64,000 nt of DNA from an uncultured Chthonomonadaceae bacterium (GTDB lineage: Bacteria > Armatimonadota > Chthonomonadetes > Chthonomonadales > Chthonomonadaceae), in the NCBI GenBank assembly GCA_963835065.1, contig CAWIEK010000043.1, forward strand, positions 10,693 through 74,692, given 5' to 3'. Positions 4,787-63,120 of the stretch are shown one piece after another (the first letter of the stretch is position 1; each line of letters opens with the position of its first letter). Under the pieces are notes generated by a model, which saw only the letters and a program-made list of their open reading frames with translations, was not told where the DNA came from and did not search any database. Position numbers and translations under genes: made by a program.

Positions 4787-6539
4787 CCAACCGGATGGTA
4801 ACGCGAACGCGGGCTTCGGGCGTTTTATCGTTGGCGGAAGGCTTTGGCTTCGCAACGGCAGGCGCAGAAGGCAGAGGCGCGGCTTCCGATTTCATGCGGG
4901 AGTGTTGGGTGGAAGGCGCGACATTCTGCGATTGAGAAGGGTGTCCATTGTTGTCCGTGTCAGTGGTATCCCCTTTCGTGACAGAGTTGACGCCGTTGAC
5001 GGGAGCGCCGGCTGCAATGTGGGACTGTGTTCTCCAGGAAGCAGAGGCAAGGGGCTTGCGTTCACCAAGCGCGTCGAGCCGGGACAGCAGGGCAGGCAGG
5101 CGACTTGCAGGAACATCCAACGTCAGCGTAGTCGCCTGCTCGCTATCCCCGGAAGGAATCTCCTTGACGCTTGTAACCACGCCGCCGCTGCTTGTAACCG
5201 CCTGATTGACGGCAGCGCGGCTTTGCTCCACATTGCCGACAAGCAATAGAATATCGTTATCCGCCTGCTTACGGTAGCGAGATTTCTGCGCAATGGCATG
5301 GGAGTTCCGCGCAAGGGAATGGGACATTTTACCGGATACCGATGCCTTCGCAACTTTGGCAGGGGGAACAGGAGGCCGCATGCCCGCCGCGCTTTTCGAA
5401 GCGACAGCGCCCTTGCTTTGTGGCGTAGTGGTTGCGCCTGACAGCAAATTGGCAGGCGTCTCCATTTTATTTTGATGCGAGCTTGTACTGGCGGCGTCCT
5501 CTGCCGGGCCGTTGACGCCTGATGGCGCGGCAATGCGCGCGGCAGGCGGCACAGGCCGACTTTCACGACGGTTCTGCGCGAGGGCTGCGGGGTTGGAAGC
5601 CCTGTTCTTCTGGGTTTCCGACGTACTCAGGGTGGCAGGGTCAGAGACATTATCCGCAGGCGCATCCTTGTCCGTGGCAAGCGGCGCGGGCGATGCTGTT
5701 TTACCGGCATACCGCCCCGCAGCGTCGGCAATGAGAGGGGGCGGGATGGACGGCGAAGAAGGGGAAGTCGGCGCAGAATAGAAAGACTTTGCCTTATCTT
5801 CACGCGCTCCGGCAGATTTTGCCGCGCTTGTCTCCTGCGCCGCCACTTCCCCCGCCGCGCTTGCGCTTCCTGTTGTGCCGCTTTCTGCGCTTGCGCTTCC
5901 CCCTGTGCTGCCCCCCGCGTTTGCGCTGCTGCCCGGAGCAATACCCGCGTTTATCTGTGCGGATGCTTTTGGCGCTTCCGGCGTTGCCGCCGAAGAAGCG
6001 ATAGATGCCGCCCGCATCGCGGAATTGTCATTCTTCATAAACAGGGGCGACAGCACCACGCATAACAGCAGCGCGGACGCCACCGCTCCCCAAGCCAACA
6101 CGAGACGCGGCTTACGGCGCGGACGCGAAACCGCTCTTTCCGCCACAGGCATGGCATGGGGAACGGCAGCCAGAATCCGGGCGCGCAGTTGCGGCGAAAG
6201 GGCGTCTTCCTCCCCCTCCTGTAACCGTTGGCTGAATTCCCGCATAGCCTGCATCTCCTCGCGGCAATGCGCGCAATTGTCCATATGCCTGCGAACGCTT
6301 TGCCGCGCCCACCATCCCAACTGCCCATCCTGATACGCCTTTAATTCCGGCGCAAACGGATCACAGGCGGGGGTTGAGGGGGCAGGAAGTGATGAGTGCT
6401 GAGTGATGAGTGATGAATGGGATTCTGCATTGTGTTCATCATTCATCATTCCGCGTTCAGCATTTCCCACTGTTCCCTGTTCCCTGTTCCCTGTTCCCTG
6501 TGTCTCCTCTTCTTCTTTTCTTCTTTTCTCTTCACTCAC
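4767..6539 (-). CDS. Zinc-finger (zf-HC2) anti-sigma factor with TM segment and long Ala/Pro-rich extracytoplasmic region
   Basis: HMDNCAHC (HxxxCxxC), TM helix, GTG start overlapping the sigma TGA (GTGA). Confidence 0.8.
   Translation of the reverse strand: MSEEKRRKEEEETQGTGNREQGTVGNAERGMMNDEHNAESHSSLITQHSSLPAPSTPACDPFAPELKAYQDGQLGWWARQSVRRHMDNCAHCREEMQAMREFSQRLQEGEEDALSPQLRARILAAVPHAMPVAERAVSRPRRKPRLVLAWGAVASALLLCVVLSPLFMKNDNSAMRAASIASSAATPEAPKASAQINAGIAPGSSANAGGSTGGSASAESGTTGSASAAGEVAAQETSAAKSAGAREDKAKSFYSAPTSPSSPSIPPPLIADAAGRYAGKTASPAPLATDKDAPADNVSDPATLSTSETQKNRASNPAALAQNRRESRPVPPAARIAAPSGVNGPAEDAASTSSHQNKMETPANLLSGATTTPQSKGAVASKSAAGMRPPVPPAKVAKASVSGKMSHSLARNSHAIAQKSRYRKQADNDILLLVGNVEQSRAAVNQAVTSSGGVVTSVKEIPSGDSEQATTLTLDVPASRLPALLSRLDALGERKPLASASWRTQSHIAAGAPVNGVNSVTKGDTTDTDNNGHPSQSQNVAPSTQHSRMKSEAAPLPSAPAVAKPKPSANDKTPEARVRVTIRLEIRDKR
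6387..6500 (-). repeat. In-frame heptamer repeat cassette in anti-sigma N-terminus
   Basis: Encodes [38 protein letters not shown]. Confidence 0.85.
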
Positions 6540-60133: not shown

Positions 60134-63120
60134 CTTTCCTCAAACAACTTCTGCCGTTCCTCCAGTTTGCCGCGCTTTTCCTGCCAATCGGACAGGCGCT
60201 TCCGCTCTTCCTCTACGATTTCGGGTTTGGCGCGTTCCACAAAACTGGCATTGCTCAATTTGGCCTGTGCCCGCTCGATTTCCTTGCCGACCGCTTCCAG
60301 TTCCTTGCGGATACGGGCGCGTTCCTTGTCCATGTCCAGCGCATCGCCGATTTCCAGAAACACCTCCATGCCTTCCGTCGGCGTCCCGATCCATTTTCCC
60401 GCCTGCCCGTTCTCCGGTGAAGGAGCCGCCGTCAGCAGACTTGGCGTAGCCTCCAAACGCGCCAAATCCACGATCAAGTCGCCGTTTTCGCGCAGCGCGG
60501 TTTCCGCCTCCGGCTGCGAAGCCACGACTGCCGCTTTTATTCGCACACTCGGCGCAATGCCAAGTTCCGCCCGCATGTTGCGAATAGCCCGCGTCGCCGC
60601 AATCATATACGCAATCGTCCGACACGCCGCCGCATCCTGCCAGCCTTCCGTATCTTTCGCTTCGGGATAAGGAGCCAGGCAGATAGTTGATAGTTGATAG
60701 TTGATAGTTGATAGGGTATCCTCTTCTGTCTTCTGTCTTCTGTCTTCTGTCTTCTCTCCTGTTCCCTGTTCCCTGTTCCCTGTTCCCTGATTCTGCGGCA
60801 ATGCCTGCCAAATCTCTTCCGTGATGAAGGGAATGAGCGGATGGAGGAGGCGCAGGGTTGTTTCCAGCGTGTAGGCCAGCATGTTTTGGGCTGTGCGGCG
60901 GGTTTCGCCTTCGGCGCGGAGACGCGGCTTCGCCATTTCCACATACCAGTCGCAGAAGTCATTCCAGAAGAAGTCGTACAGGACGCGGGTAGCGTCGTCC
61001 ATGTCGTAGGTGGTTAGTTTCTCGTTTACGGCGATAATCGCGTCGCGCAGGGACGACAGAATCCAGCGGTCCGCGCTTGTTCGCTCGTGGGGCGCGGGGA
61101 GTTCGCCCGTCGTGCCCTCATCCAGATTCATCAGGGCGAAGCGGCTGGCGTTCCACAATTTGTTGCAGAAGTTGCCCGCAATGTCGGTGCGCTGTTCGCT
61201 GTACTTGATGTCCTGATTTTTGCCCGCCTGTTGCAGCAGTGAAAAGCGGGTGGCGTCCGCGCCGTATTTGTCAATCAGGTCAATGGGGTCAATGCCGTTG
61301 CCGAGCGATTTGCTCATGCGCCGCCCCTGCTCGTCCAGCACCGTAGCGTGAATGTACACATCCCGGAACGGAATCTCGTCCACAAAATCTAATCCGCACA
61401 TAATCATACGCGCTACCCACAGGTACAAAATCTCTTGCGCGGTAGACAGCAGATTGGTCGGATAGAAATAGCGCAGATCGGCGGTATCCTGCGGCCATCC
61501 CAATGTGGCAAGCGGCCACAACGCGGACGAAAACCACGTATCCAGCACGTCCTCATCCTGCCAGCAATTGGCTGTGCCCAACTTCGCCTCCGCCTCCTCC
61601 CGCGTCCGGGCGAAGGTGTAGCGGCGGTTGCCGAATGTTCGCACATTCGGCAATGATGAGTGATGAGTGATGAGTGATGAATGGGATTCTGAATTCATCA
61701 TTCATCACTCCTCGTTCAGCATTTATTTCCGTCCACCACACCGGAATCCGATGCCCCCACCACAGTTGGCGGCTGATGCACCAGTCGCGGATGTTTTCCA
61801 TCCAGTACAGGTAGATGCCCTCGTAACGGTCGGGAATGAAGCGGATTTTGCCCTGCTTCACCGCGTCAATGGCGGGCTTGGCGAGCGGCTTCATGTCCAC
61901 GAACCATTGTTCCGAAAGCAGGGGTTCGATCACTTCCTTGGAGCGTTCGGAAATTGGCTGCTGAATGGTGTAGTCTTCAATCTTTTCCACCAAGCCCAAT
62001 TCTTCCATGTCGGCAACCACTTTTTTACGCGCTTCAAAGCGGCCCACGCCCTCGTAGTTCGGGCCGGCAAGCGCGGTCATGTTGCCATCCTTGCCGATGA
62101 CCACGATTTGCGGCAGGTTGTTGCGCAGCCCGGCCTCGTAGTCATTGAGGTCGTGGGCGGGCGTCACTTTCACCGCGCCCGAACCGAATTCCGGCTTGGC
62201 GTAGTCGTCGGCGATGAGCGGGATTTCCCTGTCGGTGAGCGGCAGTTTGAGCATTTTGCCGAACAGCGGTTGGTAACGCTCGTCGTTCGGGTTGGCGGCA
62301 ACGGCCGCATCGCCGAGCAGGGTTTCCGGGCGCGTGGTGGCAATCGTGATATGCCCGCTTCCGTCCGCAAAGGGGTAGCGAAAATGGTACAGCTTGCCCT
62401 TTACTTCTTTGGTTTCCACTTCGATGTCGGACACGGCGGATTGGAACTTCACGTCCCAGTTCACCACGCGCAGCCCCCGGTAAATCAGGCCGCGCTCGGA
62501 CCATCTGCCGAACTCCTCCATGATGGCGTCCACATAGGACGGGTCCATTGTAAAGCGAACGCGCTTCCAATCGTAGGAGCGGCCGAGTTTCTCGAATTGA
62601 AAATAGATGCGGTTGCCGTACTGTTCGCGCCACTCCCAGCAGCGCTCTAGAACTTTCCGCGCCCCAGGTCATGCCGCCAGATGCCCTGCTTGGCAAGTTC
62701 GCGCTCCACGACGTTTTGAGTGGCGATTCCCGCATGGTCGGTTCCGGGCAGGCAGAGGGCGCGTAGCCGCGCATCCGATGCCAGCGCGTCATGGTATCCA
62801 GCACGGAATTGTTCAGGGCGTGGCCCATGTGGAGACTGCCCGTAATGTTGGGCGGCGGAATCGTGATACAGTAGGGAAGTTTGTTCGGGTCGGGTTCGGC
62901 GTGAAAAACGCCGCTCCCTGCCAGAATGCGTACCATTTGCCTTCCACCTCTTTGGGGTCGTAGGCTTTGGGAAGTTCGGCCCGGGCGGTTCCTGCGGCTG
63001 TGGCGTCCGGCGCGTCCTGTGCGGCAGCGGGGTTGTCAATTGTGCTGTCGCTAAGGAGTGTCGGTGGCGGCTGTGGAGGCATGGATTAGTGCCGCAGCTG
63101 TCATGGGTGGGGTCGGTCAT
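60130..63120 (-). CDS. valS: Valine--tRNA ligase (at least four apparent frameshifts)
   Basis: [57 protein letters not shown]-terminal coiled coil. Confidence 0.97.
60683..60788 (-). repeat. In-frame three-module heptamer cassette in valS
   Basis: (ggaacag)4-(gaagaca)4-(ctatcaa)4 encoding [36 protein letters not shown]. Confidence 0.95.
61653..61724 (-). repeat. Second heptamer cassette (hairpin type) in valS
   Basis: [10 protein letters not shown] / [12 protein letters not shown]; one extra base relative to the copy at 58261. Confidence 0.9.

Follow-up and report, generated by a model that had tools for sequence, protein, structure and literature searches.

Heptamer-repeat cassettes of a Chthonomonadaceae genome and their probable relation to intervening sequences and inverted-repeat elements

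Arrays of tandem heptamers, some of them in genes, are known from cyanobacteria as STRR and SDR repeats. Heptamer arrays that likewise lie partly in genes were found in the stretch of DNA analysed here (the window), 64,000 nucleotides (nt) of contig CAWIEK010000043.1 from an uncultured Chthonomonadaceae bacterium, where they build cassettes inside eight coding sequences (CDSs), and throughout the 8.0-Mb source assembly (GCA_963835065.1, designated G000; relatives are designated G001, G002 and so on, and contigs numbered with C belong to G000 unless stated otherwise). The system is more general than a sequence-only reading of the window had noted, and it relates to the DNA of intervening sequences (IVSs) and of MITEs (miniature transposable elements with inverted repeats). 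In Coxiella, the IVS in helix 45 of the 23S rRNA contains the S23p gene, has tandem heptamers (GACAGAT) in its stem and is excised by RNase III, S23p forms a pentamer, and mobility of the IVS is only hypothesised (PMC4990558; papers are cited here for the passages that deal with these elements). Like such gene-bearing IVSs, G000 has an S23p-family gene (PF05635) in terminal inverted repeats and inserts at helix tips of 23S rRNA, but unlike in the passages on Coxiella, copies with the gene are found only outside rRNA here, the inserts in rRNA lack it, and ~1,800 derivatives occupy gene junctions and coding sequence and have exchanged arms between families.

Bacterial heptamer repeats have been described from Xanthomonas and Nostoc (PMC4692102), with 70-75 convergent pairs per Xanthomonas genome, from Geobacter (PMC2700814) and from Beggiatoaceae, where stop codons limit the orientation of TAACTGA repeats in open reading frames (ORFs) (PMC4679880). 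The arrays of G000 share with them units of 7-8 nt, mostly four in number, the frequent arrangement in convergent pairs, an intragenic position of some copies and peptides such as SIINYQL. Unlike in G000, each genome has one or few motifs there; the papers interpret them as G-quadruplexes, as sites for regulators or as signals for translation, and the main-text passages, to which the supplements may add, make no tie to an IVS protein, to turnover at sites or to in-frame mosaics. Rickettsia palindromic elements are palindromes of ~150 bp in which each family has its own conserved peptide, with 44 insertions reported (PMC10969869). They resemble the present cassettes in being inserted in frame into unrelated metabolic genes; the latter differ from what is described there in being modular tandem-repeat mosaics rather than single palindromes, in mostly not pairing, in occurring in ~170 ORFs and in being replaced at the same site. 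With REPIN/RAYT (PMC3116915) and MITEs, the elements of G000 share a non-autonomous inverted doublet, a looser loop, a rare full form and an abundant empty form, but here there are many tandem-array arm families, no RAYT carrier and no target duplication, and the elements have also entered coding sequence and rRNA. Descriptions exist of the repeats and of the IVS, each by itself; we did not find a link between IVS gene and heptamer arms, site turnover or coding mosaics in the literature searched (subscription papers and supplements were outside the search).

The hairpin unit and its gene-bearing forms

Exact period-7 arrays of at least three copies occur 1,330 times in the 8.0 Mb of G000, as against none in one triplet shuffle, and 1,299 of them have 3-4 copies. 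A more tolerant scan detected 3,241 modules of 7 or 8 nt (25 in the shuffle), 2,988 of which belong to 62 recurrent units and form 1,778 clusters; a chance origin of the arrays is excluded. In 583 clusters an inverted pair of arms with a gap of less than 120 nt is present, which corresponds to the MITE-like trait of terminal inverted repeats without coding capacity, and the basic unit is a hairpin composed of two inverted arms of four 7-mers each, with a stem of ~30 bp (median 30 bp) and a loop of ~54 nt with 45% GC. Each family shows one inward orientation across the 583 inverted pairs (rare families agree trivially), and in nearly all clusters the left-type arms come first and the right-type arms second. 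Purine content was rejected as the rule of polarity, since it fits only 532 of the 583 pairs and the rule is family-specific. In the AGTAGTC family, 67 homologous loops have 63% identity to their majority sequence and the arms deviate by 2.5% from the unit, so that a divergence of 2.5% in arms stands against 37% in loops; the GTAGACG family has this loop in common with it. Alignment folding gave no conserved RNA structure of the loop, and single loops barely beat their shuffles (mean z -0.6). Direct repeats of at least 2 nt at the stem ends were detected in 28 of 361 hairpins as compared to ~27 in the shuffled null, so that, other than in MITEs, no target duplication was seen. Most clusters are extragenic and typically located between a stop codon and the start that follows. 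Separately, some copies of a dispersed repeat of ~300 bp (C15:124395, C9:27533, C62:35063) include a single CTATCAA arm that the other copies lack, which explains many single arms.

The sequence-only reading had guessed that genes for four-helix-bundle proteins might be enclosed by such arms, and this was borne out for all three PF05635/TIGR02436 genes of G000, which lie between inverted GG(A/T)ACAG, AGTAGTC and AGAAAAGG arms, whereas only 19 of 5,000 random segments do so. Their arm families are those used by empty elements, and GGAACAG-type arms, which frame one of the genes, also dominate coding inserts. The S23p-family protein of G000 matches PDB 2GSC with E=8.5e-24. When relatives of this IVS protein (IVP) were collected as the best 80 from 12 of the 64 parts of the collection, 79 relatives from many phyla were obtained, 76 of them with enough flank; arrays on both sides were detected in 43 of these 76 and in 3 of 244 controls, and exact inverted repeats of at least 12 nt in 37 of 76 and in 5 of 244 controls, with the G-rich arm upstream in 36 of the 37. 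Cyanobacterial IVP genes have heptamer-type arms. As loop content, the S23p/IVP ORF is present in three cassettes outside rRNA and in none of the rRNA inserts or window cassettes. The IVP gene at locus L036 of G005 has arms in both orientations, as if nested inside an older inverted cassette.

Both 23S rRNA genes of G000 contain one AGTAGTC and one GGAACAG hairpin at helix tips, the position typical of IVSs; these are distinct from the nine coding cassettes of the window. The AGTAGTC hairpin of 135 nt follows Rfam model position 1218 and the other insert, of 131 nt, replaces 8 nt near position 1893, points which we take to be helices 45 and 68. The first tip is occupied in congeners by different families (AGTAGTC in G000, AGGGATT in G002, AGGGAGT in G001) and is empty in three other genera (G005, G013, G023). 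A third 23S insert (C49:338082-341304, gene positions ~300-480) consists of a lone GGAACAG/GGCACAG arm and a G/T-rich tail, and at this site different inserts are found in G001 and G002.

Genes for GxxExxY proteins had been guessed to lie within such arms as well, and all three of G000 do lie inside inverted arms (C19:8329-8673, C39:76631-76981 and C3:174084-174431), but these arms are distinct 8-9-mers. The GxxExxY cassettes constitute a sister class with many empty palindromes of 300-370 nt. The window itself contains a nested palindrome (18442-18712) with 9-mer arms, CACGGAGAA outermost, CGCGAAACAC in the middle and GCAAAGAAG innermost, all starting with AACC, and these arm types also frame GxxExxY genes. 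The third guess, RAYT, failed, as none of four Y1 matches in G000 has a 7/8-mer module inside 400 nt and the two full-length ones have non-periodic inverted repeats of their own. A weak Y1 match lies beside an 18-nt periodic repeat containing GGCAATC (C49:523763-523951), possibly by chance. Among 88 long inverted pairs judged by eye, IVP and GxxExxY were the only ORFs recognised and no cognate transposase was seen, other transposase families not having been searched.

Cassettes in protein-coding genes

Nine cassettes in eight CDSs had been reported for the window; every heptamer array named was found at its position, the recurring peptides are present in the ORF translations, and the eight gene names are backed by Pfam (zf-HC2, GT2, AAA_5, BBP2 porin, BPL, NTP_transferase, Acetyltransf_6 and tRNA-synt_1). 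The seven heptamer units listed earlier are all present but do not complete the set, as GAAAAGG, GGTATTC, GATAAGG and GATGAAT are also used. On the minus strand, the cassette of the anti-sigma (zf-HC2) gene (6369..6535, at the N-terminus of ORF 4767-6770) consists of an AG-rich 8-mer arm, four GGAACAG, 2.5 GATGAAT and four CATCACT units and has ~40 further matches in G000 (75-93% over 75-166 bp, 40 of 412 candidates having been scored). The GT2 cassette (10918..10996, gene 10728-11912) has a GGTATTC-type arm followed by a CTTTTCC arm, codes for hydrophobic residues between two hydrophobic segments and adds a net nine amino acids relative to G001, and the GT2 orthologue of G023 has a different arm peptide (SGVGCRVSG) at the identical spot. 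The McrB-like AAA cassette (28300..28402, gene 27568-29136), in a variable linker, is built from an 8-mer arm, one GGAACAG and four CTATCAA units, and that of the galU-like nucleotidyltransferase (56975..57100, gene 56503-57501) from four copies each of GGAACAG, GAAGACA and CTGTTCC, the outer arms of which pair (-55 kcal/mol). Two more minus-strand cassettes lie in valS, one in the anticodon-binding domain after ITEEIWQAL (60678..60796; four copies each of GGAACAG, GAAGACA and CTATCAA) and one, a short GATGART/CATCACT hairpin, after WGHRIPVWW (61648..61728). On the plus strand, the porin cassette (30930..31058, gene 30727-32346) follows a signal-like segment, again in a variable linker, and contains four GGAACAG, GATAAGG and four CCAACAC units; the birA cassette (39660..39778, gene 39366-40340, residues ~101-133, before GLKWPND) has four GGAACAG, four GAAGACA and 3-4 GGCAATC units, and the GNAT cassette (58184..58335, gene 57676-59058) four GGGGTCA, four GGAACAG, 2.5 GATGAAT and four CATCACT units. 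A second copy of the porin gene (C19:54783-56069) encodes a protein with 94% identity from residue 108 on.

Eight of the nine cassettes read through in the window, as had been stated. The ninth (valS 61648-61728) has a single extra G at 61691, which is absent from contig C69, a second copy of window 55471-64000 with 98.6% identity. This shift is probably single-base assembly noise, because in C69 the ValRS frame stays open across both cassettes, 16 indels separate the two copies over 8.5 kb, several of them in the 5' part of valS, and the GNAT cassette of C69 has an extra base of its own; a programmed frameshift at 61691 was by default rejected, given the in-frame copy.

Placement beside conserved motifs, another earlier claim, applies to birA and valS, but the cassette of the anti-sigma protein lies at its N-terminus, and those of the McrB-like and porin proteins are in linkers. 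In these three of the eight genes the cassettes occupy already variable linkers, and several orthologues of the McrB-like and porin proteins have long, variable, non-repetitive linkers at these places. Alignment of host proteins with orthologues revealed peptides of different families at both valS sites (in G001 and G002 at 60678..60796) and at the galU-like site in congeners. On the solved enzyme, the insert at 60678..60796, the second in ValRS, maps to a point between residues 695 and 706. The BirA loop has 53 residues; its median length, determined in 102 of 120 homologues, is 26, and several homologues carry other arm peptides and some non-repetitive loops of 30-43 residues. The names attached to BirA homologues also point to Chthonomonadaceae as the likely host. 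In an AlphaFold model, the BirA insert is predicted as coil between a helix and the GLKWPND strand, with a local confidence score (pLDDT) of 51-59 versus >90 in most of the core, in agreement with the loop placement proposed earlier. BirA also has a second, non-repetitive insertion of ~40 residues (~162-201, window 39850-39970) with low pLDDT, which is common to homologue P0002.

Genome-wide, a self-trained coding model assigned 186 clusters in 166 ORFs to an in-frame class, which corresponds to 10% as compared to 39% for random segments. The figure of 186 is a lower bound because the classes are coarse: 1,275 of the 1,778 clusters were labelled 'one side' or 'neither', and the cassettes of birA, GT2 and the anti-sigma gene are among these, so that the model missed three of the nine window cassettes. 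A signature peptide is internal to 178 of 4,287 long ORFs. In-frame cassettes, which would write loops into housekeeping proteins as previously proposed, thus make up a minority left by filtering (186 of 1,778 clusters). In a non-circular test of frame, in which sites were taken as intragenic because the frame is open in G002, 31 of 39 sites were in frame in G000, and after merging duplicate contigs 28 of 32 (p=3e-10 versus 1/3), which supports the expected frame bias; three of the eight out-of-frame sites have an in-frame twin. The result is a map of ~170 insertion-tolerant sites in one predicted proteome; ValRS and BirA are among the proteins concerned, as are further housekeeping enzymes judged by their sequence context. 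Annotators should be aware that peptides such as QGTGNRE or STINYQL derive from repeats.

The claim that stop-rich motifs occur only in their stop-free orientation did not hold, as stop-bearing units are also found in coding orientation, cut to ~2.5 copies and with the stop never in frame (the NAERGMMNDE arm). In in-frame cassettes, 26 of 424 modules are in a stop-bearing coding orientation versus 116 with a stop on the other strand only, a comparison that is partly circular in a class defined as open. Families that contain stops in either orientation (AGGCATT, AGTAGTC) prevail at junctions and have no members in the in-frame class. Long complementary stems are formed by 264 of 289 junction cassettes and by the rRNA copies, whereas 76 of the 110 two-sided CDS cassettes have arms that do not match, as compared to 25 of 289 junction cassettes; for stop-free families alone this is so in 25 of 37 coding versus 3 of 21 junction cassettes. 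The CDS cassettes are variable mosaics with a median of 27 codons and mostly weak folding (-7 to -55 kcal/mol), their module order is consistent (left 55 of 64, right 26 of 28), and the same linkers turn up in genes unrelated to one another; a non-allelic twin of at least 85% identity exists for 35 of 133 composites, a figure raised by the repeats themselves.

Turnover, spread and alternative explanations

Whole-element copies at unrelated sites bear out the proposal of mobile DNA. The hairpins at C3:219997 and C3:223917, 3.9 kb apart and inverted, are 97% identical over arms and loop and have unrelated flanks, and five more neighbouring pairs are 78-87% alike. Neighbours less than 4 kb apart have a family in common in 24 of 92 cases versus 11.5 expected (p~0.001) and have more similar loops (p=4e-5), the mutual orientation of neighbours is random, and so is loop orientation relative to transcription (25:32). 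Of the active mobile system proposed earlier, mobility is supported, whereas current activity and a mobiliser are putative. Comparison within the assembly, at 63 loci present twice in G000, showed that the cassette was kept at 53 and different at 10. These ten comprise 7-8 family swaps (the register of C8/C20 is uncertain), the loss of one unit, with copy number in C1 and C28 differing by one, and one changed loop; in duplicates with flanks 97-99.5% identical a full cassette is exchanged for an empty hairpin, and C25 has an IVP cassette exactly where C37 holds an empty AGGCATT hairpin.

Between species, 173 of the 1,778 sites could be anchored in G002 (1.6 of its 7.5 Mb), of which 95 hold another family, 35 the same family, 30 are short and 13 have no array, as compared to an array in 3.4% of random windows; in G001 (0.44 Mb), an array is present at 8 of the 29 sites compared, and 10 of them are short. 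The empty sites expected in orthologues were thus found in part, as some sites are short or arrayless, but most hold a different repeat family, and no target duplications were seen. As sites persist while their content turns over, the process appears to be mostly re-occupation of tolerant loops and not the opening of new ones. At 29 orthologous sites a matched hairpin is present in both species, most with different arms. Rewriting of arms in place with the loop kept was rejected between species (3 of 29 loop pairs lie above the 95th percentile of the null), although three within-assembly swaps suggest it. The loop at window 60050-60100 differs from that of C69 by ~10 substitutions, nearly all transversions, between identical arms and in flanks 99.5-99.8% identical, which may reflect a mutational burst or long-read error in a hairpin. 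General hypermutation of loops was discarded, since that one loop accounts for 10 of the 12 substitutions seen in loops when duplicated contigs are compared, and 9 of 11 changes in its 100-nt bin are transversions.

Taken together, we consider it fairly probable that the cassettes are gene-less, non-autonomous relatives of IVS-type elements which multiply as DNA, being copied into cassettes already present or over them, after which selection sorts what results, and as judged from sequence they are mobile DNA filtered by selection. The four-helix-bundle protein would probably help this spread in trans, a role proposed because its gene sits between the arms. A break in or beside a resident hairpin would be repaired from another cassette via the short AG...CT ends common to most arm families, and such repair would replace the resident element or nest a new one within it; later loss or exchange of single arms would give rise to mosaics. 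Selection would then keep matched, stop-bearing hairpins at stop/start junctions and rRNA helix tips, where RNase III could cut them, and stop-free, frame-keeping, mostly non-pairing mosaics in tolerant protein loops, as a sub-lineage of their own with shared linkers. More tentatively, rRNA IVSs, bacterial heptamer repeats and protein loops might be one class of mobile DNA without known transposase or target duplication, in which a four-helix-bundle pentamer would recognise heptamer arms and drive the exchange of entire cassettes and of individual arms into slots that already exist, and a sub-lineage adapted to coding sequence would repeatedly rewrite the same surface loops of essential enzymes. 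Three separate puzzles would be tied together in this way, namely the 23S IVS with its protein of unknown function, bacterial heptamer repeats and in-frame repeat insertions, and the idea of IVS mobility becomes directly testable, since there is a candidate protein along with natural substrates in full and empty form, alleles that have been swapped and one duplicate of recent origin.

Several observations weigh against copying of IVS-type elements as a full account. For the swapped alleles tested, a search of G000 turned up no close donor, so that ordinary recombination from other strains may be their source, and at C61/C36, C50/C70 and C8/C23 the arms change while the loops stay partly homologous, a poor fit to whole-element replacement. 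A BirA homologue of 85% identity retains the cassette with hardly any change, so that turnover is not uniformly fast. Avoidance of hairpins in CDSs is incomplete, as 13 of 14 GATGART left arms there have a partner, and the mismatch of CDS arms may instead reflect selection against the hydrophobic peptide VPCSLFP. The assembly is noisy, and the duplicated contigs may be strains or paralogues. Furthermore, an IVP gene is present in G005 and G011, yet no arrays occur in the 63 and 37 kb sampled, and G001 (97% complete) has no IVP match, yet contains a 23S hairpin and modules at a density of 7 per 100 kb. Overall, IVP predicts array density poorly (pooled, 25 in 293 kb versus 4 in 221 kb), a weak comparison because 2-72 kb per genome and related genomes were used.

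This last point also favours another trans factor, most plausibly a GxxExxY (PD-(D/E)xK-like) protein or a Y1/RAYT transposase, with the four-helix-bundle gene as cargo. The GxxExxY arms have a polarity like that of the heptamer arms, they also form empty and nested palindromes (as at window 18442-18712), and the cluster at C56:25526 combines a GxxExxY-type left arm with a heptamer right arm; no GxxExxY gene, however, was found inside heptamer arms in G000, and the four Y1 matches lack the modules as described above, so that we regard this explanation as unlikely.

S23p may resemble Avd of diversity-generating retroelements (DGRs). A reverse transcriptase (RT) acting with an Avd-like four-helix bundle could copy excised hairpin RNA back into DNA, and the excision of IVS RNA by RNase III in Coxiella (PMC4990558), the common families among operon neighbours and the loop with a burst of ten changes would suit such an RNA route. 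Loop changes are, however, transition-rich (55 of 68 in eight close pairs) without adenine bias, loop orientation is random to transcription, and the two RT matches, a CRISPR-linked and a retron-like RT, are not tied to cassettes. The sequence evidence appears to disfavour this retro route, which we hold to be improbable, and DGR-type mutagenesis is ruled out by mutation spectrum and RT context. By reading of translations, the first RT gene (C49:681456-683449) lies between cas2-like and cas1-like genes beside a repeat array; the retron-like RT is at C50:52485-53912.

A further explanation takes the hairpins as host regulatory parts, namely RNA-processing or translation-coupling stems at operon junctions, with in-frame copies as by-products. 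At same-strand junctions the upstream stop lies -12 to +5 nt from the left arm in 177 of 238 hairpins, the start is usually 8-20 nt past the right arm, an RNase III gene is present in G000, and the 29 sites mentioned above keep matched hairpins in both species; but many orthologous junctions are empty, several relatives are almost without hairpins, whole copies occur at unrelated sites, and survival of insertions also predicts the junction placement, which makes this explanation quite improbable. Local replication slippage with quasi-palindrome repair at tolerant sites and no element would yield arms purer than loops and copy numbers differing by one unit, but it would not yield homologous 54-nt loops at 60 unrelated sites, shared linkers, whole-element duplicates, fixed polarity or a gene between arms, and is very improbable.

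Further features of the window

Beyond the nine cassettes, ~15 more clusters lie in the window outside genes or at gene ends. The typical form is seen at 39227..39368, where an empty hairpin with AGTAGTC arms and a 54-nt loop (-87 kcal/mol) lies between the stop of the upstream gene and the start of birA. Other empty hairpins are located at 38266..38390 (GGGGTCA arms, gene junction), 32348..32439 (AGGCATT arms, porin-amt junction), 60033..60135 (AGTTGAT arms, between convergent genes), 11913..12029 (AGATATT arms), 4710..4790 (GATAAGA arms) and 3623..3693 (GATGART arms). Apparent frameshifts, consistent with assembly indel noise, occur in a murB-like gene (17377-18315), at the McrB-like C-terminus (26991-27665), in amt (32425-34038) and in the 5' part of valS (62600-63100). 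A hairpin with GATGART arms at 9052..9150 has an extra CTGTTCC arm, and two 3'-type arms (CTTCTGT, CCTAATG) at 51920..51982 are without partners.

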